DNA from: Escherichia phage KK4
Sequence record: OR327750.1
Reading direction: 5' to 3' (one strand)
DNA length: 64,000 nucleotides
Part shown: in pieces, positions 419 through 22,060 of the stretch
Position numbering within the stretch: position 1 is the stretch's first letter
Layout: the number at the start of each line of letters is the position of its first letter
Notes under the pieces: generated by a model
What the model was told of the DNA's origin: nothing
Databases searched by the model: none
What the model saw: the letters and a program-made list of their open reading frames with translations, nothing else
Position numbers and translations under genes: made by a program

Positions 419-1837
419 TTATGGATAGGTATAGATGATACCAGTTTCTAAAGCAGTTTTATGAATGATGTATCCATTACGTGATTCTTGGACATCAACT
501 TCTGGATAGTCTTTCATCATCTTCTGAAGAGTGTAACGATGCAGGTAGTATTTACTATCTGGATCTTCAGTTTTCCAATCTTTACCTTCTTCAGTCATTT
601 TTTGGATTTCATCCATAACCCACCAACCGCACCAGATGTAAGCTGAGCTACGGTGTGGAAGAGGATGAACATAAGGTAATTCACCTTCTGGTTCTGGAGC
701 AACTTTATCGGTTACCTGAACTTGACCTTCTGCCGTAATAGTTTTGCTATCATAATCAGCAGCAGTAACAGTTGCAGTAACTTCAATAGTTTGACTTCCA
801 ATAGATGAGGTATCAACGGTGTATACATTAGTTGACCCTTCTACAGGAGAAGAATCTTTCTTCCATGAATACGCAATTTGCGCTTCTTCTGGAGCATCAG
901 TGACATTAGCGGTAAATGTAGCCGAAGCATCTTGCTGGACGTTAATAGAAGGAGGAGTCAATGTAACCTGTGGATTCATTGTCTTCTTATTAACAGTTAA
1001 TGATACTTCATTCGAAGTAACTGTTTTTGCGTCATAATCCGCTGCTGTTACTTGGGCTACGCATTTAATTCTTTTTACTCCACTTGTAGTTGGAGTATAG
1101 TTAAATGTAGAGTTAGTTTCTCCACCAACTTGTGAATCATCTACATACCACTGATACGTAGCAGACGCTCCAACGGGTTGAGAAGCTAAGGCAGCAGTAA
1201 ATTGAACTGGGGTTCCAATTACTCCAGCTGAAGGACTATCGGGAGTTACTGCCAAAGTAGTTGTCTGTGTCTTTTTATTAACAGTCAGTGACACTTCATT
1301 AGAAGTAACGCTTAGTGCATCATAATCTGTCGCAGTTACTTGAGCCACACACTTAATTCTTTTTACCCCGCTTTCGACAGGAGTGTAATTGAATGTAGCA
1401 GAAGTTGCTTCGCCCACAGGAGAATCATCTACATACCATTGATAAGTAGCGTTTGCGCCTGATGGCTGCGAAGCTAAAGCGGCAGTAAATTCAATAGCTG
1501 TTCCGATTACTCCAGCGCCAGGGCTATTAGGAGTTACAGCTAAGGTGGTCGTTTGTGTCTTATTTTGAACTGTGATAGTTGTAGTAGCTTCTGCTGTTTC
1601 AGCATCAGTATCTGGGACTGGGTTTGTTGCAACTACTTTAATAGTCTTTTGACCGGCAGGTCCTTTTAGTACATAACTAAAAGTTGCTTCAGCTCCATCT
1701 TGTGGAACATCATCTACAGTCCAAGCATATGTAATAGGTCCATCTCCAGTTTGACCACTGGGTGTAGCAGTAAACTGCTGAGTCTGATCTATAACTCCAG
1801 TAGGTGTTTTAGGAGTTATATCAACTGTAAAAGCCAT
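419..1837 (-). CDS. hoc: Hoc, highly immunogenic outer capsid protein, 472 aa with one extra tandem Ig-like domain relative to the 376-aa T4 protein
   Basis: N- and C-termini match recalled T4 Hoc (…PYVHPLPHRSSAYIWCGWWVMDEIQKMTEEGKDWK…); internal 95/96-aa Ig-like unit present twice. Confidence 0.92.
   Translation of the reverse strand: MAFTVDITPKTPTGVIDQTQQFTATPSGQTGDGPITYAWTVDDVPQDGAEATFSYVLKGPAGQKTIKVVATNPVPDTDAETAEATTTITVQNKTQTTTLAVTPNSPGAGVIGTAIEFTAALASQPSGANATYQWYVDDSPVGEATSATFNYTPVESGVKRIKCVAQVTATDYDALSVTSNEVSLTVNKKTQTTTLAVTPDSPSAGVIGTPVQFTAALASQPVGASATYQWYVDDSQVGGETNSTFNYTPTTSGVKRIKCVAQVTAADYDAKTVTSNEVSLTVNKKTMNPQVTLTPPSINVQQDASATFTANVTDAPEEAQIAYSWKKDSSPVEGSTNVYTVDTSSIGSQTIEVTATVTAADYDSKTITAEGQVQVTDKVAPEPEGELPYVHPLPHRSSAYIWCGWWVMDEIQKMTEEGKDWKTEDPDSKYYLHRYTLQKMMKDYPEVDVQESRNGYIIHKTALETGIIYTYP
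992..1564 (-). repeat. Tandem duplication of a ~285-bp Ig-like domain coding unit inside hoc (residues 92-186 and 187-282)
   Basis: Two consecutive protein units NK(K)TQTTTLAVTP…SNEVSLTV; DNA copies diverged by many synonymous changes. Confidence 0.8.
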
Positions 1838-2577: not shown

Positions 2578-4089
2578 ATGACTGACATTAAAGTACATTT
2601 TTATGATTTTAGTCACGTGAGAATTGATTGTGAAGAAAGTACATTTCATGAACTCCGTGATTTCTTTAGCTTTGAAGCTGATGGGTATCGTTTTAATCCG
2701 AAATACAAATATGGTCACTGGGATGGACGAATCCGTCTTTTAGATTATAATCGTCTTCTTCCATTTGGCTTAGTCGGGCAAATTAAAAAGTTCTGTGATA
2801 ACTTTGGCTATAAAGCCTGGATTGACCCGCAAATTAACGAAAAAGAAGAATTATCAAGAAAAGATTTTGATGAATGGCTTTCTAAATTAGAAATCTATTC
2901 AGGAAATAAAAGAATTGAACCGCACTGGTATCAAAAAGATGCAGTGTTCGAAGGATTAGTTAATCGTCGTAGAATTCTTAATCTTCCAACATCTGCAGGT
3001 AAATCTTTAATTCAAGCTTTGCTTGCGCGATATTATTTGGAAAATTATGAAGGTAAAATTCTTATCATTGTTCCAACAACTGCTCTGACAACTCAGATGG
3101 CTGATGACTTCGTTGACTATCGTTTATTCAGTCATGCAATGATAAAGAAAATTGGCGGCGGAGCATCAAAAGATGATAAATATAAAAATGACGCACCAGT
3201 CGTTGTTGGTACATGGCAAACTGTAGTTAAACAACCGAAAGAATGGTTCTCACAGTTTGGAATGATGATGAATGATGAATGTCATCTTGCTACAGGAAAA
3301 AGTATTTCATCTATCATATCAGGTTTAAATAACTGCATGTTTAAATTTGGTTTGTCTGGTTCATTACGTGATGGCAAAGCTAATATCATGCAGTATGTTG
3401 GAATGTTTGGTGAAATATTTAAGCCAGTAACGACTTCTAAATTAATGGAAGATGGACAAGTAACTGAGCTAAAAATTAATAGTATTTTTCTTCGCTATCC
3501 AGATGAGTTCACTACTAAATTAAAGGGAAAAACTTATCAAGAAGAAATAAAAATTATTACTGGGCTCAGTAAAAGAAATAAATGGATCGCTAAATTAGCT
3601 ATTAAGCTTGCGCAAAAAGATGAAAACGCTTTTGTCATGTTTAAACATGTATCACATGGTAAAGCTATTTTCGATTTAATTAAAAACGAATACGATAAAG
3701 TTTATTACGTATCAGGGGAAGTTGATACCGAAACCCGCAATATAATGAAAACCTTAGCTGAAAATGGTAAAGGAATAATTATAGTAGCTAGTTATGGTGT
3801 ATTTTCTACTGGTATTTCAGTTAAAAATCTGCATCACGTTGTTTTAGCGCACGGTGTTAAATCAAAAATCATTGTATTACAAACAATCGGTCGTGTATTA
3901 CGTAAGCATGGTTCTAAGACAATAGCAACCGTCTGGGACCTCATAGATGATTGTGGTGTTAAGCCAAAATCTGCTAATACGAAAAAGAAATATGTTCATT
4001 TGAACTATCTTTTAAAACACGGCATTGATCGTATTCAGCGCTACGCAGATGAAAAATTTAATTACGTAATGAAAACAGTTAATTTATAA
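2578..4089 (+). CDS. uvsW: UvsW, RNA-DNA and DNA helicase (SF2)
   Basis: 503-aa ORF with Walker A (PTSAGKS) and DEAH-like box (MNDECH); length and position match T4 UvsW. Confidence 0.92.
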   Translation: MTDIKVHFYDFSHVRIDCEESTFHELRDFFSFEADGYRFNPKYKYGHWDGRIRLLDYNRLLPFGLVGQIKKFCDNFGYKAWIDPQINEKEELSRKDFDEWLSKLEIYSGNKRIEPHWYQKDAVFEGLVNRRRILNLPTSAGKSLIQALLARYYLENYEGKILIIVPTTALTTQMADDFVDYRLFSHAMIKKIGGGASKDDKYKNDAPVVVGTWQTVVKQPKEWFSQFGMMMNDECHLATGKSISSIISGLNNCMFKFGLSGSLRDGKANIMQYVGMFGEIFKPVTTSKLMEDGQVTELKINSIFLRYPDEFTTKLKGKTYQEEIKIITGLSKRNKWIAKLAIKLAQKDENAFVMFKHVSHGKAIFDLIKNEYDKVYYVSGEVDTETRNIMKTLAENGKGIIIVASYGVFSTGISVKNLHHVVLAHGVKSKIIVLQTIGRVLRKHGSKTIATVWDLIDDCGVKPKSANTKKKYVHLNYLLKHGIDRIQRYADEKFNYVMKTVNL

Positions 4090-4114
4090 GGGCTTCGGCC
4101 CTTTGGAGAAAAAG

Positions 4115-4345
4115 ATGTTACTAGAATTTAAACAATTTCTTTATGAAGCTTCTATTGATGAATTTATGGGTAAAATTGCCTCTTGTCAAACATTAGAAGG
4201 TTTAGAAGAACTTGAAGCTTATTATAAGAAAAGAGTTAAAGAAACTGAATTAAAAGATACTGATGACATCTCTGTGAGAGATGCTTTGGCAGGAAAAAGA
4301 GCTGAATTAGAAGATTCAGACGATGAAGTAGAAGAAAGCTTTTAA
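4115..4345 (+). CDS. uvsW.1: UvsW.1, small acidic accessory protein of UvsW
   Basis: 76 aa from internal Met (MLLEFKQFLYEA…) with GGAG ribosome-binding site; immediately follows uvsW. Confidence 0.75.
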   Translation: MLLEFKQFLYEASIDEFMGKIASCQTLEGLEELEAYYKKRVKETELKDTDDISVRDALAGKRAELEDSDDEVEESF

Positions 4346-4400
4346 ATTAAAAAAGGCCCAACCAAAAAGGAAGGGCCAAAACTATAGACTAAAGGTCACA

Positions 4401-4568
4401 CTATAGCAAAAGTTGTGTTTCATTTAATTGTTCTTCCGAACTTTCTGAAACTGGTAGTTCTTTAATGTAATTATAGCAAGGCCCAGGATGTACAGGACCT
4501 TTGTCTGTTTCAACAACCAATGCAGAATCGATTGGAGTTTTACAGACAACACAAATCTTATCTGACAT
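4401..4568 (-). CDS. Small Cys-rich protein, 55 aa (position of uvsY.-2); not in the supplied ORF track
   Basis: Hand-translated MSDKICVVCKTPIDSALVVETDKGPVHPGPCYNYIKEL…; CxxC…C pattern. Confidence 0.5.
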   Translation of the reverse strand: MSDKICVVCKTPIDSALVVETDKGPVHPGPCYNYIKELPVSESSEEQLNETQLLL

Positions 4569-4745
4569 GATTGTCTCCTCTGAATTATATATCTATTTAT
4601 AACCCCATCTTAAAACGCATTTCTTGTACACGCTTTAAACATGCTTCCATTTCTGCTAAAAGTCTAAATACTTCTTTATAATTTGTCATATTTACCCCAT
4701 ATCTCTCATATGCATATCAATGCCCATATCTTTAGAATAAAAATA

Positions 4746-4919
4746 TTAATCAAGATATCCGGCAAATTTTCCTTTAATATAAAGGACATCTTCACCACAC
4801 GGGTGGTCGGCCAGGATACGAATATCCTGACGCTTAAGATTATACTTTTTCATTAAGAATTGAATTTCCGTTTCAAATTCTTCTTCATAATTAAAAGCGT
4901 CATCAATGCTATATCTCAT
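4746..4919 (-). CDS. Small protein, 57 aa (position of uvsY.-1); not in the supplied ORF track
   Basis: ATG overlaps the uvsY stop by 1 nt (TAATG); hand-translated MRYSIDDAFNYEEEFETEIQFLMKKYNLKRQDIRILADHPCGEDVLYIKGKFAGYLD. Confidence 0.55.
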   Translation of the reverse strand: MRYSIDDAFNYEEEFETEIQFLMKKYNLKRQDIRILADHPCGEDVLYIKGKFAGYLD

Positions 4920-5332
4920 TATTTTCCAGCCTCAAATGCCCGCATGTCTTGAATATGCTTAATAGCAAATCCACGTGATTTAATAGCATCAAGAGCTCCG
5001 CTACAGAAATCTAATAAAATCCCCCAATATTGTAACGAGGTATCAACCTTTAAAACATCCTTATCAGCTGATAGAACTGTCTTCATTTCTGATTTCTCGT
5101 AACGATCCATACTAAATTCATCACCATCTCCTCGTCCCGAGTAGTAGTCTAATTTAGCTTTAAGAGCAACTTTTTTCTGTGCGTCAATTCTAAGCATTTC
5201 CTTTTTAATACTTGAATGCTTATTAAGCCATTTACTATATAACATCACATTATTAGCTGCTTCATACTGTAATTTAGTCGAATCTATAAACACATCTTTC
5301 TTCAATTCTTCCTGAAGATCTTCTAATCTCAT
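4919..5332 (-). CDS. uvsY: UvsY, recombination mediator protein
   Basis: 137-aa ORF, matches T4 UvsY length and position. Confidence 0.9.
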   Translation of the reverse strand: MRLEDLQEELKKDVFIDSTKLQYEAANNVMLYSKWLNKHSSIKKEMLRIDAQKKVALKAKLDYYSGRGDGDEFSMDRYEKSEMKTVLSADKDVLKVDTSLQYWGILLDFCSGALDAIKSRGFAIKHIQDMRAFEAGK

Positions 5333-8398: not shown

Positions 8399-8876
8399 AG
8401 AAGTTTCTATTCCTAAAATGGGTCTTAAACATTATAACATTTTAAAGGATGTTAAAGGTCCTGATGAAAATTTAAAACTTCTTATTGATTCTATTTGTCC
8501 GAATTTATCACCGGCAGAAGTTGATTTCGTTTCTATTCATTTATTGGAATTTAATGGAAAGATTAAATCTCGTAAAGAAATAGATGGTTATACTTATGAC
8601 ATTAATGATGTTTATGTGTGCCAAAGATTAGAATTTCAATACCAAGGAAATACATTTTATTTTAGACCTCCTGGAAAATTTGAACAATTTTTAACGGTGA
8701 GCGATATGTTGTCTAAATGCTTGCTTAGGGTCAACGATGAAGTTAAAGAAATTAATTTTCTTGAGATGCCAGCATTCGTTTTAAAATGGGCAAATGATAT
8801 TTTTACAACTTTAGCAATTCCTGGCCCTAATGGTCCAATAACTGGAATTGGCAATATTATTGGATTATTTGAATGA
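8343..8876 (+). CDS. 28: gp28, baseplate hub distal subunit
   Basis: 177-aa ORF overlapping the gp27 3' end as in T4. Confidence 0.85.
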
Positions 8877-10645
8877 AAAAGCCACAAGAAATGCAAACGA
8901 TGCGTAGAAAAGTTATTTCAGATAATAAACCAACACAGGAAGCGGCTAAATCCGCTTCTAACACTTTATCTGGACTTAATGATATATCTACGAAATTGGA
9001 TGATGCTCAAGCTGCTTCTGAATTAATAGCTCAAACTGTCGAAGAAAAATCGAATGAAATAGTTGGAGCAATTGGTAACGTAGAAAGCGCAGTGAGTGAT
9101 ACTACTGCCGGTTCTGAGTTAATTGCTGAAACTGTCGAAATTGGCAACAATATTAATAAAGAAATCGGTGAATCACTAGGAAGCAAATTAGATAAATTAA
9201 CAAGTTTACTAGAGCAAAAAATTCAGACAGCTGGAATTCAACAGACTGGGACTAGTTTAGCCACAGTTGAAAGCGCTATTCCTGTTAAAGTCGTTGAGGA
9301 TGATACTGCTGAATCTGTGGGTCCTTTATTACCGGCTCCCGAAGCAGTTAATAATGATCCTGACGCTGATTTTTTCCCTACCCCTCAACCAGTTGAGCCA
9401 AAGCAAGAATCGCCAGAAGAAAAACAGAAAAAAGAAGCATTTAACTTAAAATTATCTCAAGCTTTAGATAAATTAACAAAGACTGTTGATTTTGGATTTA
9501 AAAAATCCATTTCAATTAGTGATAAAATATCAAGCATGTTATTTAAGTACACCATCAGTGCTGCTATTGAAGCCGCTAAAATGACTGCAATGATATTGGC
9601 TGTTGTTGTTGGAATAGATTTGCTGATGGTTCACTTTAAATATTGGTCAGATAAATTTTCAAAAGCCTGGGATTTATTTAATACTGACTTTACTAAATTC
9701 TCTAGCGAAACCGGAACTTGGGGTCCTTTATTACAGAGCATCTTTGATTCTATTGATAAAATTAAACAACTTTGGGAAGCGGGAGATTGGGGTGGATTGA
9801 CAGCAGCTATCGTAGAAGGACTCGGAAGTGTTCTTTTTAATTTAGGAGAGCTTATTCAATTAGGTATGGCTAAATTATCTGCTGCAATTCTTCGAGTCAT
9901 TCCTGGTATGAAGGATACCGCTGATGAAGTAGAAGGAAGAGCATTGGAAAATTTCCAAAATTCTACTGGAGCATCTCTCAATAAAGAAGACCAAGAAAAA
10001 GTTGCAAATTATCAAGATAAACGAATGAATGGAGACCTTGGTCCGATAGCAAAAGGATTAGATAAAATTGCTAATTGGAAAACTCGTGCATCTAATTGGA
10101 TTCGTGGGGTTGATAATAAAGAAGCACTAACTACCGACGAAGAACGTGCAGCAGAAGAAGAAAAATTAAAGCAGCTTTCACCTGAAGAAAGAAAAAATGC
10201 TTTAATGAAGGCTAATGAAGCACGTGCCGCGATGATTCGTTTTGAAAAATATGCTGATTCAGCTGATATGAGTAAAGACTCAACGGTTAAATCAGTTGAA
10301 GCTGCCTATGAAGACCTTAAAAAACGGATGGATGACCCGGATTTAAATAATTCACCGGCAGTTAAAAAAGAACTTACTGCTAGATTTTCTAAAATTGATG
10401 CTACTTATCAAGAGCTCAAGAAAAATCAGCCTAATGCCAAACCTGAAACTTCTGCTAAATCGCCAGAAGCAAAACAAGTCCAGGTAATAGAAAAGAACAA
10501 AGCACAGCAAGCTCCTGTTCAACAAGCATCTCCTTCAATCAATAATACTAATAATGTTATTAAGAAAAATACTGTCGTTCATAATATGACACCCGTAACG
10601 AGCACGACTGCTCCTGGTGTATTTGGCGCGACTGGAGTTAATTAA
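8873..10645 (+). CDS. 29: gp29, tail tube length determinant (tape measure) and baseplate hub protein
   Basis: 590-aa ORF, T4 position and length; coiled-coil-rich. Confidence 0.9.
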   Translation: MKKPQEMQTMRRKVISDNKPTQEAAKSASNTLSGLNDISTKLDDAQAASELIAQTVEEKSNEIVGAIGNVESAVSDTTAGSELIAETVEIGNNINKEIGESLGSKLDKLTSLLEQKIQTAGIQQTGTSLATVESAIPVKVVEDDTAESVGPLLPAPEAVNNDPDADFFPTPQPVEPKQESPEEKQKKEAFNLKLSQALDKLTKTVDFGFKKSISISDKISSMLFKYTISAAIEAAKMTAMILAVVVGIDLLMVHFKYWSDKFSKAWDLFNTDFTKFSSETGTWGPLLQSIFDSIDKIKQLWEAGDWGGLTAAIVEGLGSVLFNLGELIQLGMAKLSAAILRVIPGMKDTADEVEGRALENFQNSTGASLNKEDQEKVANYQDKRMNGDLGPIAKGLDKIANWKTRASNWIRGVDNKEALTTDEERAAEEEKLKQLSPEERKNALMKANEARAAMIRFEKYADSADMSKDSTVKSVEAAYEDLKKRMDDPDLNNSPAVKKELTARFSKIDATYQELKKNQPNAKPETSAKSPEAKQVQVIEKNKAQQAPVQQASPSINNTNNVIKKNTVVHNMTPVTSTTAPGVFGATGVN

Positions 10646-10653
10646 GGAATAAT

Positions 10654-11748
10654 ATGGCAATTGTTAAAGAAATAACTGCTGATTTAATTAAAAAGTCTGG
10701 TGAGAAAATTTCAGCCGGGCAGAGTACTAAATCAGAAGTAGGAACTAAAACATACACAGCCCAGTTTCCAACTGGGCGTGCTAGTGGTAATGACACTACA
10801 GGGGACTTCCAGGTAACAGATCTATATAAGAATGGATTATTATTTACTGCATACAATATGTCATCTAGGGATTCTGGAAGTCTTAGATCGATGAGATCTA
10901 ACTACTCTTCTTCATCTTCGAGTATTTTACGTACAGCCAGAAACACTATTAGTAGTACAGTATCAAAACTATCAAATGGATTAATATCAAATAATAATTC
11001 AGGAACAATAAGTAAAGCTCCTATCGCAAACATTCTTTTACCGAGATCTAAATCTGATGTTGATACATCATCACATAGATTTAATGATGTTCAAGAAAGC
11101 CTTATCAGTAGAGGCGGAGGTACTGCTACTGGAGTGCTAAGTAATATTGCTTCAACCGCAGTATTTGGGGCGCTGGAAAGTATAACACAAGGTATAATGG
11201 CTGATAATAATGAACAGATTTATACGACAGCCAGAAGTATGTATGGTGGTGCTGAAAATAGAACTAAAGTGTTTACATGGGATTTGACTCCACGTTCAAC
11301 AGAAGATTTAATGGCTATTATTAATATCTATCAATATTTTAACTATTTTTCTTATGGTGAAACGGGTAAATCTCAATATGCTGCTGAAATAAAGGGGTAT
11401 TTAGATGATTGGTATCGTTCTACGTTAATTGAACCTTTATCTCCAGAAGACGCAGCTAAAAATAAAACACTATTTGAGAAAATGACATCGAGCTTAACTA
11501 ACGTTCTAGTGGTTTCAAACCCGACAATTTGGATGGTGAAAAACTTTGGTGCAACATCTAAGTTTGATGGAAAAACGGAAATATTTGGCCCATGTCAAAT
11601 CCAGAGTATCAGATTTGACAAAACACCTAATGGTAACTTTAACGGATTAGCTATTGCTCCAAACCTCCCTAGTACATTTACTCTCGAGATTACTATGAGA
11701 GAAATTATCACGTTAAACCGTGCTTCTTTATATGCGGGGACTTTTTAA
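10654..11748 (+). CDS. 48: gp48, baseplate tail-tube junction protein
   Basis: 364-aa ORF, T4 position and length. Confidence 0.9.
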   Translation: MAIVKEITADLIKKSGEKISAGQSTKSEVGTKTYTAQFPTGRASGNDTTGDFQVTDLYKNGLLFTAYNMSSRDSGSLRSMRSNYSSSSSSILRTARNTISSTVSKLSNGLISNNNSGTISKAPIANILLPRSKSDVDTSSHRFNDVQESLISRGGGTATGVLSNIASTAVFGALESITQGIMADNNEQIYTTARSMYGGAENRTKVFTWDLTPRSTEDLMAIINIYQYFNYFSYGETGKSQYAAEIKGYLDDWYRSTLIEPLSPEDAAKNKTLFEKMTSSLTNVLVVSNPTIWMVKNFGATSKFDGKTEIFGPCQIQSIRFDKTPNGNFNGLAIAPNLPSTFTLEITMREIITLNRASLYAGTF

Positions 11749-12713
11749 TGTATTCTTTAGAGGAATTTAATAATCAAGCAATAAACGCAGATTTCCAACG
11801 TAATAATATGTTTAGCTGCGTTTTTGCAACAACTCCATCAACTAAAAGCTCTTCGTTGATAAGTTCAATTAGCAACTTTTCTTATAATAACTTGGGCCTA
11901 AATTCAGATTGGCTAGGATTAACTCAAGGTGATATTAATCAGGGAATTACCACGCTAATTACAGCTGGCACACAAAAACTGATAAGAAAATCAGGGGTTA
12001 GTAAATATCTTATTGGTGCCATGAGTCAACGTACAGTTCAAAGTTTATTAGGCTCATTTACAGTTGGTACATATTTAATTGACTTCTTTAACATGGCATA
12101 TAACTCATCTGGATTGATGATATATTCTGTAAAAATGCCAGAGAATAGATTATCCTATGAAACTGACTGGAACTATAATTCTCCTAATATTCGTATAACT
12201 GGAAGAGAATTAGACCCTTTGGTTATTTCATTTAGAATGGATTCAGAAGCTTGTAACTATCGTGCAATGCAAGACTGGGTTAACTCTGTTCAAGACCCAG
12301 TAACTGGATTACGTGCTTTGCCACAAGATGTCGAGGCAGATATTCAGGTTAATCTTCATTCTCGTAATGGATTGCCTCATACTGCGGTGATGTTCACCGG
12401 ATGCATTCCAGTGTCAGTGAGCGCTCCTGAGTTATCATATGATGGAGATAACCAAATAACTACATTTGATGTTACTTTTGCGTATAGAGTCATGCAGGCT
12501 GGAGCAGTTGATAGACAAGCTGCGCTTGAATGGCTTGAATCTGCTGCTATAAATGGTATTCAAAGCGTTCTCGGAAATAGTGGAGGTGTTACTGGACTAT
12601 CTAATTCGCTTTCACGACTTAGTAGATTAGGAGGGACTGCAGGAAGCATTTCAAACATTAATACTATGACAGGGATTGTCAATTCACAGAGTAAAATATT
12701 AGGAGCAATATAA
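11748..12713 (+). CDS. 54: gp54, baseplate tail-tube initiator
   Basis: 321-aa ORF, T4 position and length. Confidence 0.9.
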   Translation: MYSLEEFNNQAINADFQRNNMFSCVFATTPSTKSSSLISSISNFSYNNLGLNSDWLGLTQGDINQGITTLITAGTQKLIRKSGVSKYLIGAMSQRTVQSLLGSFTVGTYLIDFFNMAYNSSGLMIYSVKMPENRLSYETDWNYNSPNIRITGRELDPLVISFRMDSEACNYRAMQDWVNSVQDPVTGLRALPQDVEADIQVNLHSRNGLPHTAVMFTGCIPVSVSAPELSYDGDNQITTFDVTFAYRVMQAGAVDRQAALEWLESAAINGIQSVLGNSGGVTGLSNSLSRLSRLGGTAGSISNINTMTGIVNSQSKILGAI

Positions 12714-12717
12714 CAAT

Positions 12718-12747
12718 GGGGACCTTTCGGTCCCCATATTTTTATTT
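12718..12747 (+). terminator. Intrinsic terminator after gene 54 (GGGGACC-UUUC-GGUCCCC hairpin plus U-tract)
   Basis: Perfect 7-bp stem with tetraloop followed by ATATTTTTATTT, 5 nt after the gene 54 stop. Confidence 0.7.
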
Positions 12748-13032
12748 ACGGAATGAAATGAAAGCAGCAACTGAAGCAACTAAACTGTCTTCAATATAAA
12801 CTTCAATTTTTACCGGAGCTTCTGACTCAAATTTACCTGTTACTACACCTTGGAAAATACTTTCAGTTTGTTCTGGCTTTGAAAAATTTTCAGAAGGAAA
12901 AATTCCGAACTTTTTATCTGTTCCAAAAATTTTAATAAATTCATCGTAAACTGCTTCATTAAAAGCATTATCAGCAGGAATAACGCCTTCAACTACAAGT
13001 TCTTGACCTAAAAAGCGCAAAGAAGATTTCAT
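12742..13032 (-). CDS. Hypothetical early protein (position of T4 alt.-3)
   Basis: 96-aa ORF preceded by a GAGGAA ribosome-binding site and an early promoter. Confidence 0.6.
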   Translation of the reverse strand: MKSSLRFLGQELVVEGVIPADNAFNEAVYDEFIKIFGTDKKFGIFPSENFSKPEQTESIFQGVVTGKFESEAPVKIEVYIEDSLVASVAAFISFRK

Positions 13033-13047
13033 TTTGTGTTCCTCATG

Positions 13048-13093
13048 TTATGTCAGTAAGACTACTATAACACAACATAAGGAACTTGTAAAC
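13048..13093 (-). promoter_or_regulatory. T4 early promoter (GTTTAC -35, ~18 nt spacer, TATAGT -10)
   Basis: Minus-strand GTTTACAAGTTCCTTATGTTGTGTTATAGT directly upstream of the 96-aa ORF. Confidence 0.5.
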
Positions 13094-15150
13094 TACATTT
13101 TGAACTTTTTAGACATTCCGTTGATGTTAACCAAAGAAGCCAAGATTTGAGAAACTTCGTTTTCCTCTTCTTTTGATTCTTCTACAAGGAATTGATTAAA
13201 TCCAGCCATTGGACGAACTTCACCAGTTTCCATTAAATGGTCTCCATCATATACTGATTCTTCTAATTGTTCAGAAGGAGGAACGATTGTACCTTCGATT
13301 AGATACTTGTTATAAGCAGTTTCTTTCATAAAGTACGTACTTACTTTATTAATCTTTAGTAAAATTCCACGCGGTAGAATAACTTCAGCTTCTGATGGAA
13401 ATCCTGATAAATGACCTGGAACGATAACTTTGATTCGCTCAGCTCCTTCAATTACCATACCCACGCTAGTTTCAGCATCTTCATTAGCATATGTAGAATG
13501 ACTACCCATATGCATCAAATCTTCTGCATCAACGGAACCTTCTCCTTCGCCAGAAAATACTGCGCCGGAATCATCTAGAGCCATATAGTTTTTACCGTGC
13601 TCACCGAAGATATTTGGTTTAAGCGATGTAGATACGAAGTTCTTGAAATAGAACATTTTGTTTTCAATGTTATGACGCAAAGTTTTAAAGGTAACTTCTT
13701 GTCCGCGATAAAGCGTAGTTCCTGGAGGAAGAACTGAACCTTTAGCGAATGCAGAATCCAACGTCTCGATGTGCTTAATAGCACGTTCCATATATTCTTC
13801 ACGGGTAGAATCTGGTTTACCCAAAAGGAACGAGTTCATTTCAACATATGAATCTGCGCAATAATCTTCAATTACGTCAGATTCAGCTTGAGTTAATCCT
13901 TTTGGAGTTACTTCAGTACTTGCGTATTCATATGCCTGGGCAGCAGATTCATTAATTAATTTATAAATGCCATTCATTACAAATTGAATAATAGCTGTCT
14001 TTTCATCTGGCGTGGCTTTAGAACCTTTAACTAAATCATTAATAATTTTCTTAATAACATCAAAGCTATTAGAAATATTAATATCAGCAAGATCGCTTAA
14101 AATTTTATCAGTTTTATAATCAAAGAATTCTTTATTCTTTAAATATTCTTGAGAACCTTGATATGTTATATCGCTCTGCAACTTGATAGATGGATCACGT
14201 AAACGTGCATGGGCCAATGCAATATGATTTCGGAAGCTTTCTAGTTCATAATCGTTAGATTTAAAACGAGAAGCACTTCTCATACCACCGATAGCTCCTT
14301 TGCTGAAGTTTGAACCAATCTGGATAACGCCAGAGTTCATCGGACCTTCTGCTTTATATACCGGAACTTTAGATTCAAACTCTTGATATTTCTTGGCAGC
14401 GAAGCTATCACCCTGAAGTGAAGCATCAACAGTAGAATATTGAGCTTGTGCTGCTAATCGACGACTGATTTTAGTTTTCTGAATAACAGCTTGGTCCGTG
14501 CGCTTATCATTTTCTAAAGCAATAGAAGCAGCAACAGCAACAGCTTTAGGAACAGCATTACCTGTTTTAACGTCTACATAAACATCACCGACCTTTGATT
14601 CAACTTTTGTGAATAACTCAGTTGAAATAGGAGGTACACCTGGAATGTCTTCTAAATTGGCATTTTTACGGTAAACCATAATATATGCATATTTCTTATC
14701 ATAGTCCCAGATTTCCTTTAAAAGAACATATCGACCTGCTCCTTTAGTACGTACTAAACGGTCAGCAATAACTTGCATTTGACGAGCTGCACCATTTGTT
14801 TTACTCTTTAGTACACGGAATAAGCACGCGTCAATTTTATACTGCTTCATTGTTTGAAGAGCAGTATCAAAAACAGCATTAATGACGCCAATTGGATTTC
14901 CACCCAAGTTTCTAAGCTTAACCAGCGATAATTTCTCGTTGACACCTATCATTACGATATGCATCATTTTATCGCCTGGCTTAACGTTTTTATTTGTATC
15001 ACCGCCAGAGGTGTATGTACAAAATCTAAATCCAGAAAGCACACTTTCTTCGCCGGCTTGAATAGCAAAAATTTGTGGTATTTTATGCTTAGGATTTAAG
15101 TTAACAACCGGCGCCGAAGCGCCGTCAAATAATTCTGTAATGAGTTCCAT
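13093..15150 (-). CDS. Alt-family ADP-ribosyltransferase paralogue, 685 aa (position of T4 alt.-2/alt.-1), with capsid-targeting N-terminus
   Basis: N-terminus MELITELFDGA… and central region parallel Alt; C-terminal domain has R (LYRGQ), STS and ExE (EAEV) catalytic motifs. Confidence 0.85.
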   Translation of the reverse strand: MELITELFDGASAPVVNLNPKHKIPQIFAIQAGEESVLSGFRFCTYTSGGDTNKNVKPGDKMMHIVMIGVNEKLSLVKLRNLGGNPIGVINAVFDTALQTMKQYKIDACLFRVLKSKTNGAARQMQVIADRLVRTKGAGRYVLLKEIWDYDKKYAYIMVYRKNANLEDIPGVPPISTELFTKVESKVGDVYVDVKTGNAVPKAVAVAASIALENDKRTDQAVIQKTKISRRLAAQAQYSTVDASLQGDSFAAKKYQEFESKVPVYKAEGPMNSGVIQIGSNFSKGAIGGMRSASRFKSNDYELESFRNHIALAHARLRDPSIKLQSDITYQGSQEYLKNKEFFDYKTDKILSDLADINISNSFDVIKKIINDLVKGSKATPDEKTAIIQFVMNGIYKLINESAAQAYEYASTEVTPKGLTQAESDVIEDYCADSYVEMNSFLLGKPDSTREEYMERAIKHIETLDSAFAKGSVLPPGTTLYRGQEVTFKTLRHNIENKMFYFKNFVSTSLKPNIFGEHGKNYMALDDSGAVFSGEGEGSVDAEDLMHMGSHSTYANEDAETSVGMVIEGAERIKVIVPGHLSGFPSEAEVILPRGILLKINKVSTYFMKETAYNKYLIEGTIVPPSEQLEESVYDGDHLMETGEVRPMAGFNQFLVEESKEEENEVSQILASLVNINGMSKKFKM

Positions 15151-15153
15151 GAT

Positions 15154-17205
15154 TTATCCTTGAACGAACTTGTAAGGCATGTTTGCAATATCTATACAAG
15201 ACGCAATAATTCCAAGAGATGATTCTACTTTCTGTTTAACATTTGATGAAACAAATGATGCAAAGTCAACTCTATCTTCTATATCACCTGTCATTGTAAC
15301 TACTTCGCCGGTTTCCATTAAACGGTCACCGTCATAAATTACTGATTCGGTGAGTTCTTCGGTGGTCATAACTTCAGCTTGAATAAGCTTGTTGTTAGTT
15401 TTGACTGTTCCATCATTGTAAGATGCATCAGTTATTTTATTAACTTTGACCATTAATCCACGTGGCAAAATGACTTCCATTTCATTTGAAGGCGCTAAAC
15501 TTCCACCGGGTAAAACAACATTGACTTTATCAGCCCCAGTAATAACCCATCCAATTCCGACTAAATTATCGCTAGAATTAACAAGCCCTTCATCATTTTT
15601 ATCGATAGAAATGTTTAGACGCTTTTCATCTGGTAAAACACCAACAGCTGAATCAGTCATCCAAGTACCAAAAATGTTTGGATATAATGATGTTGATACA
15701 AAATTTCTAAAATAAAAAACTCGATTTTTTACCATTGCTTCGTATATTGAAGGTAACATTCGTTGTGAACGATACAAAGTAATACCTTTTGGTAATCGTT
15801 CACCATTTTTAAAGGCTGAATCTAAATTATCAATAGCTTTTTCTATGTCAGATGCTGTCAAAATACTTGTACGCTCATCTGGATTATATAATCCCAAAAG
15901 AGCATTATTTATGTCTACATATCCTGAACCTACGTATTCACGAATTCCGCGTTTTTGTGCTGGTGTGTATTTAGATGAATCTTTATTTTCGACTATAGGA
16001 TGTAATGACCATCCAGCTGTAAGAGCATATCCACGTAATTCTCTTCGAATAATCTTTGTTTTTATTGCATTCCAAGAATTTTGTACTAACTCATTTGCAG
16101 CATCTTGGTTTAAATGCGAATGTTTGTTAATATTTCTTTCAAACCAAGCACCTTTATATTTTTCTAAAGTATCATCGACGATAGAAGCAATAGTTTCTAA
16201 AGTTTTTATTGAAGTAATAGATTCTTTTCGTAATTTTTCTAAAGCTTTATTTTTTATTTCTGCATTAATAATGGATTCTTTATCTTCAGGAATTATAGAA
16301 GCTTCTCTGAATGCCATCCCAGCTGTAACACTGCTAAGAGCATTCTCTAGTGCAAATCCTGAAGTAGAAATTACCGTTAATTCATTAGAATCAGAAATTA
16401 AAGGCGCATCAGCGGGTTTATTTAATTCTGCTGCTGAAGCCTCAAATTTTTGAAACATCGGTGTTTCAAATCTAGAAGATTCCAATGACTGACTTTGTGC
16501 AATTGCTCTACGGGAAATTTTAACTTTAACGATTACAGCTTGGTCAGAACGTTTATCATTTTCTTGTGCAATAGATGCTGCAATTGCCTCATTTTTGGTT
16601 ACTTGAGCTCCGGTATCTTTATTGATATAAACATCACCGACCTTCGATTCAACTTTAGTAAAGAGCTCGGTACTAATTTCCGGAACTCCTGGAATGTCTT
16701 CTAGTGATACATTTTTGCGATGTATAAGAATATATGCATACTTTTTATCATAATCCCAGAGTTCCTTAAGAAGGACGTATCTGCCACCTGAACGACTACG
16801 GATAAGTCTATCAGCAATAACTTGAATTTGTCGAGCTTGACCAGCGGTTTTAGACTTAAGAATACGAAGCATACAAGCATCAATTTTATACTGACGCATT
16901 GTTTGCATTGCAACAGTAAAAACTGAATTGATATAATTAATTGGGCTTGGACCAAGACCTTTTAATTTAGCAATTGAACCTTTAGCGGTTAATGTAAAAG
17001 GAACAATATGCATCATTTTATCGCCCATTTTTAAATCGCGATTAGTATCACCTCCAGATGTATAAGTACATAAACGAAAGCCTGGTTGTTCAATTGCATC
17101 ATCAACATGAACTGAAAAAATTTGCGGTATTTTCTTCTTTGGATTTAAGTTTGTAATCGGAAGAGTAGTATCTTCGTCAAATAATTCTGTAATAAGTTCC
17201 ATCAT
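15154..17205 (-). CDS. alt: Alt, capsid-packaged ADP-ribosyltransferase that modifies host RNA polymerase
   Basis: 683-aa ORF matching recalled T4 Alt; R-S-E motifs LYRSQ, STS, EMEV. Confidence 0.92.
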   Translation of the reverse strand: MMELITELFDEDTTLPITNLNPKKKIPQIFSVHVDDAIEQPGFRLCTYTSGGDTNRDLKMGDKMMHIVPFTLTAKGSIAKLKGLGPSPINYINSVFTVAMQTMRQYKIDACMLRILKSKTAGQARQIQVIADRLIRSRSGGRYVLLKELWDYDKKYAYILIHRKNVSLEDIPGVPEISTELFTKVESKVGDVYINKDTGAQVTKNEAIAASIAQENDKRSDQAVIVKVKISRRAIAQSQSLESSRFETPMFQKFEASAAELNKPADAPLISDSNELTVISTSGFALENALSSVTAGMAFREASIIPEDKESIINAEIKNKALEKLRKESITSIKTLETIASIVDDTLEKYKGAWFERNINKHSHLNQDAANELVQNSWNAIKTKIIRRELRGYALTAGWSLHPIVENKDSSKYTPAQKRGIREYVGSGYVDINNALLGLYNPDERTSILTASDIEKAIDNLDSAFKNGERLPKGITLYRSQRMLPSIYEAMVKNRVFYFRNFVSTSLYPNIFGTWMTDSAVGVLPDEKRLNISIDKNDEGLVNSSDNLVGIGWVITGADKVNVVLPGGSLAPSNEMEVILPRGLMVKVNKITDASYNDGTVKTNNKLIQAEVMTTEELTESVIYDGDRLMETGEVVTMTGDIEDRVDFASFVSSNVKQKVESSLGIIASCIDIANMPYKFVQG

Positions 17206-17225
17206 AGCCTCTCTAGTGTTTATTC

Positions 17226-17256
17226 TATTTATAAAATTAAAGGCCCGAAGGCCTTT
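17226..17256 (-). promoter_or_regulatory. Late promoter (TATAAATA) for alt preceded by an AGGCC-UUCG-GGCCU hairpin
   Basis: Minus-strand TATAAATA at 17233-17226; hairpin at 17241-17255 between the 62-aa ORF and alt. Confidence 0.55.
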
Positions 17257-17443
17257 AGTAATCTAGTGGTAAGAGAGTACGATATATTTCAAACTTTGGT
17301 CCTTTTTCATAGGCATCAAATGTTTCTGTAAATTTATTATAAGCGTATGCATCTACAAATTCGAGAATGACTTGTGATACAGAAGTAGAAACATCTCCAC
17401 CTTCTTTTTGAGCAATGACAATTGTTTCTAAGTAAGCTTTCAT
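17255..17443 (-). CDS. Hypothetical small protein, 62 aa, translationally coupled to the ligase gene
   Basis: ATGA start/stop overlap with the gene 30 stop. Confidence 0.5.
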   Translation of the reverse strand: MKAYLETIVIAQKEGGDVSTSVSQVILEFVDAYAYNKFTETFDAYEKGPKFEIYRTLLPLDY

Positions 17444-18903
17444 AAACCAGTTACCTCATGAAAATCACCAAATACATCCTCGAATGTATTAGCTTTAGTT
17501 TTATCTTCACGTAAACGAATCGCAATCGGAAGAAATAATTTAACGTAATCAGTGCGGCCATCAGATTTTAACCAACCGTTGCATTCGCACTCTAGAATTT
17601 TTCCAATATAATAATTTTGGTTTTCCATAATGCGAGTACGGTCAAGTTCATGCGATTTTACACCGGCTTTATCTTTTAAGCCTGAACCAGCATTTACCTT
17701 AATTTTTCCACACTCTGATTCAAGAATAAATCCACCCGCTTTAGTAGGGTCTTTACGGTGAGGATAAATTCCTACAATTTTTAAATCAACATCAATTACT
17801 TCTTTAAATTTATAGAGATTTTTTGAACGAGCATTTTCCCACAATCCATCGGTATTTTTGAGAATAATACCTTCAAGACCTTGGTCAATATACTTTTTAT
17901 AAATTACCTTAGCTTCATCTAGGTTATTTACTACCTGGTTTTCAATTAAAATTACTTTATCATAACCTGATGTCATTTGTTCTAGTTTAGAAAAACGTAC
18001 ATCATATTTCAAACGAAATGCAGGAAGACCGTATATTTCTACCAACGGGACATAATCCCAGACCTGAAACTTCATGCATTGAGCTTCTTTTTCAGAAATG
18101 GTTCCCTTTAAAGATTTATTGGCGATGCCATTAGATGCAGTACGTGATTCAGCTACTTCGGCGAATTCTTTAGCTTTACTAATTTCAGGATAAGCATCAA
18201 AAAGAAAATCTAGGCCTTCTGGCTCCTTTTCAACTTGCTCATGGTATACCAATTCGCCATCAATTAACACACCTTCTGGATGAATCTGGCGAGCTTCTGC
18301 AGTCATTTTGATTAACTCTTCCTTAAGAAGATCTAATCCTAGATATTCATTACCAGCTCGTGATAAAAGACGAACATCATCTAATTCATCACCTCTGACT
18401 TCAGCAAAACACCGAGCTCCATCAGCTTTTAACTGGGCAAAGGCTGGAAATTTGATATTCTTATTAATGCCTTTTTCATCATAAGAACTTGCAAGCATTT
18501 GAGGTTGTTCAGGAATTAAACCTGGCCAAACTTTGTTTGCAATAGATACTGAAGCACCGCATTCAAGGTCTCGCATCATCACCCGACGCAAAACTTCAAC
18601 ATCATCTTTTTTACCGTCAGTAATATATCCAGTTAATTCCTCAATTGCCGCATTTCCAGTCAATTTCCGAGTAGCTAACGTGAATTCAATGAAGTCAAGC
18701 ATATCGGTAAGAGTCAACATTCCAAAACTCTGGGTAGCAATACCCGGTTTAGGCCATTTCTTGATATAATACTGTAACCCACGAGAATAAGTCAGACGAT
18801 ATACTCGTTTAAGCAATTCATTATCTTTATTCTTTTCAAGAATTGCTTGCTTCTGCTTAGTTGAACCAATAGATGCTATTTCGTTCAGAATTTTAATAAT
18901 CAT
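17440..18903 (-). CDS. 30: gp30, ATP-dependent DNA ligase
   Basis: 487-aa ORF essentially identical over long stretches to recalled T4 DNA ligase (MI(L/I)KILNEIASIGSTKQKQAILEKNKDNELLKRVYRLTY…). Confidence 0.97.
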   Translation of the reverse strand: MIIKILNEIASIGSTKQKQAILEKNKDNELLKRVYRLTYSRGLQYYIKKWPKPGIATQSFGMLTLTDMLDFIEFTLATRKLTGNAAIEELTGYITDGKKDDVEVLRRVMMRDLECGASVSIANKVWPGLIPEQPQMLASSYDEKGINKNIKFPAFAQLKADGARCFAEVRGDELDDVRLLSRAGNEYLGLDLLKEELIKMTAEARQIHPEGVLIDGELVYHEQVEKEPEGLDFLFDAYPEISKAKEFAEVAESRTASNGIANKSLKGTISEKEAQCMKFQVWDYVPLVEIYGLPAFRLKYDVRFSKLEQMTSGYDKVILIENQVVNNLDEAKVIYKKYIDQGLEGIILKNTDGLWENARSKNLYKFKEVIDVDLKIVGIYPHRKDPTKAGGFILESECGKIKVNAGSGLKDKAGVKSHELDRTRIMENQNYYIGKILECECNGWLKSDGRTDYVKLFLPIAIRLREDKTKANTFEDVFGDFHEVTGL

Positions 18904-19169
18904 TGTTCATCCTTTAGAGTTTGGTTTACAGCTCTATTATAAATCAATTCATCATTAAGCTCAGTCAAAGACCTGCGGTACGTGGTTCTAACTTTATTTC
19001 CTTGCATCCAGTGCTTGACGTAAATGAAACCTTGCTCTACACATTTTTTAAAAATTCGTTCGTCTTTTTGAGCTCGGAATTCTGGATTGCATCTAAAAAA
19101 TTGATTTACGTGACCGTAATCACGTGTAGTATTACCTTCATTTTCATAAATAGTATGAACAACAAACAT
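18900..19169 (-). CDS. Hypothetical protein (30.1 position)
   Basis: 89-aa ORF, ATGA overlap with neighbour. Confidence 0.6.
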   Translation of the reverse strand: MFVVHTIYENEGNTTRDYGHVNQFFRCNPEFRAQKDERIFKKCVEQGFIYVKHWMQGNKVRTTYRRSLTELNDELIYNRAVNQTLKDEQ

Positions 19170-20008
19170 TAGAATGCTCCTTGGAAAATATTATCACCAC
19201 TAGTAGGTCTATTATACAAATACTCTATGCCACCAGGTTTAATATAGTTCCATGTCTGAAACGGATGTGTCTGATATGGATGATATAGATGATTATAAGG
19301 ATTAAATCCAGGAGTTCTCCAGGTAGTGTTCCAAGGAAAAGAATCGTTTTTGATCATCTTCTCAATTACATCTTTTATAGCTTTTTCACTATCAAAACTT
19401 TCTTTATTTTCCTTTGGTGAAAAAAGCTTATTTTCTACATCATTCCATGTATAAACTCGCTGTGCAGTTTTTGGAATATTGTCACGCTCTCCTCGAGCCA
19501 TCCAATAAACAGGAACATTTAATATTTCACTCGCGTGATCGCAGTGGTGAGCGAGATCGTCAATATAACAAATTACGTTATATTTCTCTTTTGCCTTTTT
19601 GAACAACTCTTCTTTTGAAGAATCATGACCACACATCAATACTTCTGAGAAGGCACCAGGAAAAAGAGCATTCAAATTAAATTGACGATTCAGCAGAGCG
19701 TCAATAGAATCACCCAATGCTGTAACAGCTACAAAATTATAATCTTCTTTTAATTTGTTAATTACACACAGGGCATCTTTATATGGAGACAAGTAACGAA
19801 TAAAATCTGAACGATTGTATTTTTCAATTAACTTGACGCCAAGTTCTTCATCACAATTAAAGAGTTTACCAGGAGAAATAAATTTCTCATCTTGGATCAT
19901 TTTTAAAATATGTTCTAACGGAAGATTATATTTCTGAGCAAAATAAGGAAGGCCTGATTGCCAGCTTAAACATACTCCATCAATATCAGTTAAAATAGTA
20001 GGCTTCAT
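19169..20008 (-). CDS. HAD-superfamily phosphatase-like protein (30.2 position)
   Basis: 279-aa ORF with N-terminal DxDGV motif (LTDIDGVCL) typical of HAD hydrolases. Confidence 0.6.
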   Translation of the reverse strand: MKPTILTDIDGVCLSWQSGLPYFAQKYNLPLEHILKMIQDEKFISPGKLFNCDEELGVKLIEKYNRSDFIRYLSPYKDALCVINKLKEDYNFVAVTALGDSIDALLNRQFNLNALFPGAFSEVLMCGHDSSKEELFKKAKEKYNVICYIDDLAHHCDHASEILNVPVYWMARGERDNIPKTAQRVYTWNDVENKLFSPKENKESFDSEKAIKDVIEKMIKNDSFPWNTTWRTPGFNPYNHLYHPYQTHPFQTWNYIKPGGIEYLYNRPTSGDNIFQGAF

Positions 20009-20469
20009 AGAGAGTCTCTTAATAGGTTTAACACATCAATAAATTCAGCTTCGGTTAATATTGTATCATCTTTTGTTAGACCACTAGCCATGCTGTGCTT
20101 CAAAACTTTTCCTTTCGAGGCGTGTAATGCATCACGAAAGCCCTTGTTTTGGATCGCTGCTTCAAAATATGCATTTGTGTATAATTCTTTCCATGCTGGG
20201 GAGTATCTTGAAAACGGAACTCCAAGCCAGAAGAGGGTCCCACGGTCCTGAGCTCTAGCATAAGACCTTCCAGCTTGTTGGGCGGCAAGCCCGGATAACC
20301 CAAATATACGACGTTGTTGTTCAGCATTTTTCACCTTGCATCCTTGGAGGAATCCTTCAAGACCTCCGAATTGAATACCATCCATGACGAAAGGCCATTG
20401 GGCGAAATTACTTAATGCACACGATGGCCATCTAAAATTGCTTCTAATCTCTAACTCAGACATTTTCAA
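20005..20469 (-). CDS. Hypothetical protein (30.3 position)
   Basis: 154-aa ORF, overlapping stop/start with flanking genes. Confidence 0.6.
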   Translation of the reverse strand: MKMSELEIRSNFRWPSCALSNFAQWPFVMDGIQFGGLEGFLQGCKVKNAEQQRRIFGLSGLAAQQAGRSYARAQDRGTLFWLGVPFSRYSPAWKELYTNAYFEAAIQNKGFRDALHASKGKVLKHSMASGLTKDDTILTEAEFIDVLNLLRDSL

Positions 20470-20662
20470 TACTTATAATTTCAACATCAGCCCAATGACC
20501 ATAGCAAGGAAGACGAAATTCAACTGGCCAGTTAGGGTCCTTTTCTAATATAATAGACTTAACTTGTGGTTCTTCATGTTCATCAGTATATGGATTTTTA
20601 TCTGTTACTTTATATGTGACCTTAATGTACTGAATTCCAAAAATCTTATTAATTATATTCAT
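20456..20662 (-). CDS. Hypothetical protein
   Basis: 68-aa ORF in the tightly packed early operon. Confidence 0.5.
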   Translation of the reverse strand: MNIINKIFGIQYIKVTYKVTDKNPYTDEHEEPQVKSIILEKDPNWPVEFRLPCYGHWADVEIISIENV

Positions 20663-20856
20663 ACTAATTCCTTTAATCCGTAGATAGGAGATAATTCATC
20701 GCCCATACGAAGGTCTTCATTTCCATCTACCCAAGAAACAATATAAGCCTCTTTTATTTGAATACCACTCCATTTAAACGGAGGTAGAACCTTAGAAATT
20801 AATCCAGGTATACCAACTCCCTTTAATTCAACAGTTTGACCTAAAAAGAATTTCAT
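20659..20856 (-). CDS. Hypothetical protein
   Basis: 65-aa ORF, ATGA overlap. Confidence 0.5.
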   Translation of the reverse strand: MKFFLGQTVELKGVGIPGLISKVLPPFKWSGIQIKEAYIVSWVDGNEDLRMGDELSPIYGLKELV

Positions 20857-21143
20857 TAAAACCTCATCTGAAAACCGTGCGATTTAACATTACCGCCATT
20901 AATATCAGAACTATTAATTTCACGTGCAATTGAGGGATCAATGTCAATTTCGCGATTGAGTTTAGTGATAGCTAAAGTATCGCGCCCATTTACAGTACGG
21001 AACTCTAAAGGGCAGACTACATTAACGTAGTTTTTAATCGATTCGCTAGTAGGCTGCAAATGTGCAGGAAGGTCTTTAGGCGCCTTTGAGAAAACTACTT
21101 CGCAGAAGTTTTTACGAGTATCAAAATAAGTGGTCATAAACAT
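20856..21143 (-). CDS. Hypothetical protein
   Basis: 95-aa ORF; start preceded by a GAGG ribosome-binding site lying inside a GC hairpin. Confidence 0.5.
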   Translation of the reverse strand: MFMTTYFDTRKNFCEVVFSKAPKDLPAHLQPTSESIKNYVNVVCPLEFRTVNGRDTLAITKLNREIDIDPSIAREINSSDINGGNVKSHGFQMRF

Positions 21144-21184
21144 AATAATTTCCTCAATGAGGGGCTGAAGCCCCTCATTTTATT

Positions 21185-21562
21185 TTAAATATCAAATTCG
21201 TTAAGAACTACATCAAAGATTGCTTCAAGATGCTCAGGTTTAGCTCTGTTACTCAGAATATGACGAATCCAAGTTTTAACTAAGAGTTTACGATTAGCAC
21301 CATTCCAGCAAGGATGAGTCCCTAAATCGCGTTGACGGAAATCATCATCCAGAGCGATTTTAAAGTTGGAACCTTCCATTGTGATTGAAACCGTGATGCC
21401 ATTTTCAAATCGCATATAAACGTAGTTAGGAGTCATATACTGTTCAATTTCGCATACTGATCCATTTTGATGTTTCCAAAGGCAGATGGTATCAATAGAA
21501 CCTGCAATACCACTAGAAACATATTTACGTTCAAAGTTAATGTAGTTCATTTTATTCTCCAA
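21185..21562 (-). CDS. Hypothetical protein (30.7 position)
   Basis: 125-aa ORF behind an early promoter. Confidence 0.55.
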   Translation of the reverse strand: MENKMNYINFERKYVSSGIAGSIDTICLWKHQNGSVCEIEQYMTPNYVYMRFENGITVSITMEGSNFKIALDDDFRQRDLGTHPCWNGANRKLLVKTWIRHILSNRAKPEHLEAIFDVVLNEFDI

Positions 21563-22056: not shown

Positions 22057-22060
22057 CAAC

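Follow-up and report, generated by a model that had tools for sequence, protein, structure and literature searches.

An intact Alt paralogue in Escherichia phage KK4 is a predicted second head-packaged ADP-ribosyltransferase, and T4 alt.-1/alt.-2 are the remnant of its counterpart

In a 64,000-nucleotide stretch of the genome of Escherichia phage KK4 (OR327750.1; hereafter the window), two neighbouring open reading frames (ORFs) on the minus strand, ORF-A (15154..17205, 683 aa) and ORF-B (13093..15150, 685 aa and stop), encode full-length members of the Alt family of ADP-ribosyltransferases (ARTs). ORF-A is the Alt protein of phage T4, and ORF-B is an Alt paralogue and the intact counterpart of the T4 reading frames alt.-1 and alt.-2. 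We consider it probable that ORF-B is a second late-made, head-packaged, arginine-directed mono-ADP-ribosyltransferase, processed by the prohead protease gp21 and acting on substrates partly distinct from those of Alt. Our confidence that ORF-B is an active enzyme, as its sequence predicts, is higher than our confidence in this full reading. Confidence in the distinct targets, which are suggested by the diverged middle domain and substrate-recognition (ARTT) loop, is lower.

The initial annotation of the window had placed two adjacent full-length Alt-family ORFs at these coordinates, and this was confirmed. The two proteins are 41% identical end to end by BLASTP, with an E-value of 1e-155 that excludes chance resemblance. 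Both match the Pfam model PF03496 (ADPrib_exo_Tox) above its curated gathering threshold of 23.4 bits (125 bits, 3.1e-36 for ORF-A; 71.6 bits for ORF-B), and phrog_802 spans both from end to end (5.8e-262 for ORF-A; 3.2e-255 over residues 1-685 for ORF-B). PF26846 (Tevenvirinae_ADPRT) is given for homologues of both proteins by the source database, without coordinates, and NCBIfam yielded a model for neither. Region by region, ORF-A is 97-100% identical to T4 Alt. Its first in-frame ATG, at 17205, gives the 683-aa form; the start is most likely the second ATG, at 17202, which gives a protein of 682 aa and stop (15154..17202, minus strand), matching the T4 and GADU22 annotation. Escherichia phage GADU22 (OQ944321, genus Tequatrovirus) is 100% identical to the window across 12700-17500, and its record labels both genes 'Alt-like RNA polymerase ADP-ribosyltransferase'. 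The pair had thus been annotated before, here and in many relatives, and the duplication has been published, with paralogous alt copies mentioned in 2006 (PMC1524935) and in 2014 (PMC4177764).

The catalytic motifs quoted from the letters of the window were found in both proteins, as TLYRSQ, FVSTS and NEMEV in ORF-A and as TLYRGQ, FVSTS and SEAEV in ORF-B. In sequence searches of the PDB, ORF-B alone gave no match and ORF-A alone only a marginal match to CdtA. Because these single-sequence searches were weak, a family profile was needed. In the underlying alignment (A1; 18 family members, with residue numbers given for ORF-B), R482, S507, S509, E587 and E589 are invariant, as are Y430, N439 and F500-Y-F502. 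The A1 profile aligns the family arginine with the catalytic arginine of the toxins C3cer and CPILE-a, and the family ExE with their QxE/ExE ARTT motif. In ORF-B, R482 is encoded at 13705-13707, S507-T-S509 at 13624-13632 and E587-x-E589, which follows F584 in the ARTT loop, at 13384-13392. In ORF-A, where codon positions were checked, the catalytic R478 lies at 15769-15771, S503-T-S505 at 15688-15696 and E574-x-E576 at 15475-15483 (all on the minus strand). The R-S-E triad is intact in both proteins, as had been claimed. Loss of the catalytic glutamate on structural alignment, which had been set beforehand as evidence against an active paralogue, was looked for, and the glutamate is kept. The predicted ART domain of ORF-B resembles solved C3/VIP2/iota-like members, with the arginine-specific Vis as the best structural match, and the ORF-A model finds the same structural neighbours. 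Together, the ExE motif and the match to Vis suggest, by analogy, that ORF-B would direct ADP-ribosylation to arginine.

ORF-B is under strong purifying selection. Among seven orthologues from different phages, the ratio of nonsynonymous to synonymous substitution rates (dN/dS) is 0.045 overall, with values of 0.013 for the N-terminal domain, 0.081 for the middle, 0.038 for the ART domain and 0.050 for the C-terminal tail. TLYRGQ, FVSTS and SEAEV are unchanged in all seven, and the earlier view of the second enzyme as intact stands.

The T4 genes alt.-1/alt.-2 are what decay has left of a once full-length paralogue, rather than a partial copy of alt. The T4 reference lists alt.-1, alt.-2 and alt.-3 after alt, and its record describes alt.-1/alt.-2 as apparently duplicating the initial portion of alt. 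By blastn, T4 aligns with the window at 12700-13112 (95.6% identity) and at 14803-17494 (96.2%), and skips 13113-14802. This 1.69-kb part of ORF-B (13113..14802, minus strand), defined by blastn and the junction sequences, is absent from T4, which retains ~390 bp of the ORF-B counterpart. T4 alt.-1 (NP_049810) corresponds to ORF-B residues 1-54, after which there is a frameshift, and alt.-2 (NP_049809) corresponds to residues 62-115, running on over the deletion into the final ~20 nt of ORF-B. A short imperfect direct repeat, CT(T/C)TTTAG, contains the breakpoints; it is found at 13104..13112 and 14803..14811 of the window and at 5105..5113 of record L001. In addition, the PHROG families derived from alt.-1 and alt.-2, phrog_23015 and phrog_15247, fit ORF-B much more closely than ORF-A. 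The flanks are collinear, the deletion is defined and alt.-1/alt.-2 are ORF-B-like; therefore, T4 holds the remnant of the paralogue. The initial annotation had noted that T4 carries alt.-1/alt.-2 as separate ORFs at the paralogue position. The position is indeed the same, but these ORFs are not a full-length gene split in two, since they represent only its first ~115 codons.

A total of 401 phage records contain the segment that T4 has deleted, among them T2, T6 and RB32 (94-100% nucleotide identity over at least 80% of the segment), and 90 records span the T4-type junction. In Tequatrovirus, most phages thus keep the paralogue intact, and T4 departs from the norm here. The novelty implied earlier for an intact second gene was overstated, the gene being annotated in T2, T6 and RB32. 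The shared junction suggests either one ancestral deletion that spread or T4-derived stocks that were sequenced repeatedly. Orthologues of 685 aa at the same position carry various names ('alt.-2' in RB32 and T6, 'alt.-1' in T2, a second 'alt' in AR1 and WIK99922 in GADU22); they are the same gene, with no substantial difference from ORF-B. Most of these phages pair it with a 697-aa Alt allele instead of the 682-aa form. The idea that ORF-B is a T4-type pseudogene or an assembly artefact was discarded, given the 100% match to a finished genome, the 401 records and the dN/dS of 0.045. In Shigella phage sb1 (record L003), the paralogue (2981..5038) and gp48 (542..1636) are each split into two ORFs, probably through sequencing error.

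ORF-A and ORF-B share the same four-part build, consisting of an N-terminal propeptide, an alpha/beta domain, a helical middle, and an ART domain with a C-terminal propeptide, and their AlphaFold2 models have an identical domain order. In ORF-B (minus strand throughout), residues 1-6 (MELITE; 15133..15150) are predicted to be an N-terminal propeptide that terminates with the gp21 motif I-T-E. Residues 7-240 (14431..15132) make up the conserved N-terminal domain, which is alpha/beta in the models, and residues 241-415 (13906..14430) the all-helical middle domain. The ART domain covers residues 416-631 (13258..13905), ending at L629-E630-E631, and residues 632-685 (13096..13257; SVYDGDHLMETGEV...KKFKM) form the predicted C-terminal propeptide, the counterpart of the 63 residues removed from T4 Alt.

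Conservation between the paralogues is distributed differently from what had been described. The initial annotation spoke of a conserved central region; instead, it is the N-terminal ~240 residues that are conserved, with 66-67% identity between ORF-B residues 7-240 and Alt, whereas residues ~241-415 are the least conserved part, at 10-18% depending on the alignment. The helical domains of ORF-A and ORF-B are essentially unrelated in sequence, and both are modelled as helical. Identity is 30-42% for the ART domain and 37-49% for the C-terminal tail, values that again depend on the alignment. From STS to ExE, both proteins contain a long, acidic stretch (71 residues with a net charge of -4 in ORF-A, 80 residues with a net charge of -9 in ORF-B). 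Its length and sequence vary across the family, and it is far longer in P0012 of phage JS10. The acidic Gly/Ser/Glu-rich stretch of ORF-B, which had been taken for a unique insertion, is the local form of a hypervariable segment found family-wide. A PADLOC match to a ThsB TIR-like model in the helical middle of ORF-A (residues 278-356; 16135..16371, minus strand; E 0.003, 14.7 bits) was taken as chance.

Each T4 head contains ~40 copies of Alt (PMC9958956), which gp21 cuts at ITE-6 and LTE-619, the latter cut stripping 63 C-terminal residues (PMC5694885). These sites are encoded at 17185-17193 and 15346-15354 (minus strand) in ORF-A. The N-terminus of ORF-B, MELITE, is identical to T4 Alt residues 1-6, in line with the shared start (MELITELFD) noticed earlier; the ITE-6 motif is kept and E6 is invariant in A1. 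ORF-B also has a C-terminal LxE motif that was not named in the initial annotation. L629-E630-E631, followed by S632, aligns exactly with Alt L617-T618-E619, followed by S620, and across the family E631 is invariant and S632 nearly so. The tail invariants in A1 comprise E631, Y634, D635, G636, D637, E641, G643, E644, K682 and F683, a YDGD..ETGE...KF signature. Past the LxE motif, the models are disordered or low in predicted local distance difference test score (pLDDT), as expected of a propeptide. Constraint on ORF-B is tightest in the N-terminal domain; we place PF26846 on residues 7-240 by elimination and propose that this domain is a prohead-core packaging module. From these sequence motifs, we infer that ORF-B is packaged into the head and trimmed by gp21.

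The arrangement of the two genes is consistent with their joint expression. A match to the T4 late-promoter consensus, TATAAATA, lies ~20 nt upstream of alt (17226..17233, minus strand). It is the sole match within 6457-22894, and ORF-B is without a promoter of its own. At the junction of the two genes (15151..15165, minus strand), the TAA of alt is separated by a 3-nt spacer from the ATG of ORF-B, and an AAGGA Shine-Dalgarno sequence is located in the last alt codons. With a single late promoter, a 3-nt gap and a Shine-Dalgarno sequence for ORF-B, both proteins would be made together, late, during head assembly. Based on the consensus match, alt and ORF-B are predicted to form a late-transcribed two-gene operon. 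Between alt.1 and the late promoter there is a terminator-like hairpin, TAAAGGCCTTCGGGCCTTTA, with a T-run (17238..17257, minus strand), which would shield alt and ORF-B from upstream transcription.

In a tree of ART domains, ORF-B and Alt fall into different lineages. The A lineage contains T4 Alt, the 697-aa Alt of T2, T6 and RB32, P0016 and P0018, and the B lineage contains ORF-B, P0009, P0017 and the JS10-type and KM16-type proteins. The A/B split is old and upheld across genera, with the B lineage also represented in Dhakavirus-type phages. The JS10 'Alt' (P0012), P0014 of Salmonella phage KM16 and the proteins of QL01 and dhabil have ART domains closer to that of ORF-B (49-60%) than to that of T4 Alt (36-44%); they differ from ORF-B in coming from other genera and in having longer or different acidic inserts. 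Within alt itself, at least two cassette alleles occur, one of 682 aa (the window and T4) and one of 697 aa (T2, T6, RB32 and many more). Compared across records L004-L006, L008-L010 (5042..7135), L013 and L014, these alleles are 100% identical in the N-terminal domain and ~91% in the C-terminal tail, with ~32% identity in the middle and 62% in the ART domain.

Recombination between the two lineages was also found. Four chimeras combine an A-type N-terminus with a B-type remainder, through four distinct crossovers within the first ~225 residues. Chimeric genes lie at 3271..5331 of L015 (phage vB_EcoM_SCS4), 4001..6055 of L012 and 4001..6061 of L011 (proteins P0003, P0005 and P0006). In the complete vB_EcoM_SCS4 genome and in the 65-kb metagenomic contig L012, the chimera is the sole Alt-family gene between alt.1 and alt.-3, which is the product expected from unequal crossing-over of tandem copies. 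An origin of the chimeras as Logan assembly artefacts was rejected in part, since the same state occurs in the complete vB_EcoM_SCS4 genome. The natural states of the Tequatrovirus locus are A and B together (the majority), A with a remnant (the T4 type) and a single A/B chimera. Given the T4-type losses and the chimera-only phages, neither enzyme is individually indispensable.

Based on these data, we propose a mechanism for the pair. Both enzymes would be made late from the TATAAATA promoter, and their shared N- and C-terminal modules would bring both into the prohead scaffolding core. There, gp21 would trim both ends, leaving residues 7-631 of ORF-B by analogy with Alt. The mature enzymes would then be ejected with the DNA into the host, where they would use host NAD+ to mono-ADP-ribosylate arginines in host proteins at the very onset of infection, and ORF-B would most likely modify a set of host proteins partly different from that of Alt. 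Different host targets are plausible because the middle domain and the ARTT loop diverge. Residues 241-415 of ORF-B are a candidate substrate-selection module. At the ARTT position three residues before the first glutamate, F584 of ORF-B aligns with the tyrosine of C3cer and CPILE-a, whereas T4-type Alt has P571. In C3- and iota-type toxins, this ARTT turn-1 aromatic contributes to protein-substrate recognition. For T4 Alt, 27 or more modified host proteins are known, among them RNA polymerase alpha (at R265), EF-Tu and MazF (PMC8120803), and with such a broad target set some overlap with the targets of ORF-B is likely.

Several points weigh against a second packaged enzyme with targets partly its own. 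ExE implies arginine specificity only by analogy, packaging and cleavage of ORF-B are read from motifs, of which LxE tripeptides are common, and model confidence is moderate (pLDDT 74-75; 74.9 for ORF-A). In the searchable literature, we found genomic mentions of the duplication only and no experimental data on ORF-B or any orthologue; virion proteomics of the orthologues was likewise not found there. Moreover, T4 and 89 other records thrive without ORF-B, and some phages have only a chimera, so that an overlap in function is possible.

Such an overlap is taken furthest if ORF-B is an active, packaged back-up that modifies essentially the key targets of Alt (such as R265 of RNA polymerase alpha, EF-Tu and MazF) and is kept to raise dosage or lend robustness, for instance when the host neutralises one version of the enzyme and the other remains. 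We regard this as unlikely, although it is the alternative that survives best. It would fit the packaging modules and catalytic core common to both proteins, the loss of either gene in nature (the T4-type deletion in 90 records; the chimera-only vB_EcoM_SCS4) and the promiscuity of T4 Alt itself, with its 27 or more targets (PMC8120803). However, the A and B lineages stay distinct across genera, the middle domains share 10-18% identity, ARTT turn-1 differs, and plain duplicates seldom persist at a dN/dS of 0.04 over such divergence. It is improbable that ORF-B is active but unpackaged, having a late intracellular role like that of ModA/ModB after infection, with the shared termini as historical leftovers. 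Late co-transcription would be compatible with such a role, but a dN/dS of 0.013 in the N-terminal domain and of 0.050 in a tail with invariant residues, together with the retention of both gp21 motifs, is hard to explain unless packaging or processing is in use. That ORF-B is dead or decaying, whether as a pseudoenzyme, a purely structural core protein or an incipient pseudogene, is very improbable under the strong purifying selection described above, even though T4 and its relatives lost it and its Pfam score is under that of Alt (71.6 versus 125 bits).

Beyond ORF-B as a second packaged ART with partly distinct substrates, we tentatively raise a broader idea, which is possible though we would stop short of calling it likely. 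The alt locus could be a modular injected-effector cassette, in which a constant packaging chassis (the N-terminal domain and the two gp21-cleaved propeptides) carries swappable helical and ART modules (A-type of 682 aa, A-type of 697 aa and B-type), the B-type with a host target of its own. Recombination inside the shared N-terminal region may shuffle these modules. If true, the B-type enzyme could act on a protein of host defence, much as Alt acts on MazF, and most natural T-even phages would be four-ART rather than three-ART phages.

T4 Alt (gpAlt, NP_049811), the same protein as ORF-A, is a head-packaged NAD+:arginine mono-ADP-ribosyltransferase. ORF-B is like it in full-length architecture, R-S-ExE residues, ITE-6 and LxE motifs, C-terminal tail, late operon and position, and unlike it in overall identity (41%), in the middle domain (10-18%), in having F584 for P571 and in an STS-to-ExE segment that is nine residues longer and more acidic. 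The C3, VIP2, iota, CDTa and Vis toxins (PF03496) have in common with the Alt family the fold, the catalytic arginine, STS and the ARTT aromatic at -3 with ExE, at only 14-24% identity. The Alt family has, beyond the toxins, a phage-specific N-terminal packaging domain, a helical domain and propeptides, and its STS-to-ExE segment is an estimated ~30-40 residues longer than theirs by C3/iota numbering. T4 also encodes ModA and ModB, the latter of which links RNA chains to host proteins. Both are, like Alt, R-S-E clade ARTs acting on host transcription and translation proteins (PMC8120803); in contrast to Alt they are small, early-expressed and unpackaged, and they are set apart here by description only.

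Phage ARTs are a current topic in host take-over and counter-defence, and knowledge of them is almost wholly derived from T4. One review counts "three known viral ARTs" (PMC8120803), a figure that reflects a model phage without the fourth. Around 401 relatives, including T2 and T6, carry this fourth, apparently active and predicted head-packaged ART that T4 deleted. If the targets of ORF-B differ from those of Alt, T-even phages would make one more immediate-early change to the host, so far unstudied, and this might partly account for why T4 and T2/T6-like phages differ in host range or in sensitivity to defences. The remaining gap is the experimental function of the B-lineage enzyme, not the discovery of a new gene.

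Downstream of the enzyme pair, and outside it, lies the alt.-3 homologue (DUF5498, 96 aa; 12742..13032, minus strand). An early-type promoter match for this gene (TTTACA-17-TATAGT, with TG; 13064..13092, minus strand) overlaps the stop codon of ORF-B, and this match suggests that alt.-3 is transcribed early, as a unit of its own. In T4, mutations that lengthen the Alt.-3 C-terminus lead to escape from the CmdTAC defence (PMC11618068). Between alt.-3 and the convergent gene 54, a GC-rich hairpin with a perfect 9-bp stem (12716..12737) would act as a terminator on both strands. On the other side of the pair, the alt.1 homologue (62 aa; 17255..17443, minus strand) matches Pfam PF24647 ('Phage_blade'), and its 3′ end overlaps the hairpin at 17238..17257.

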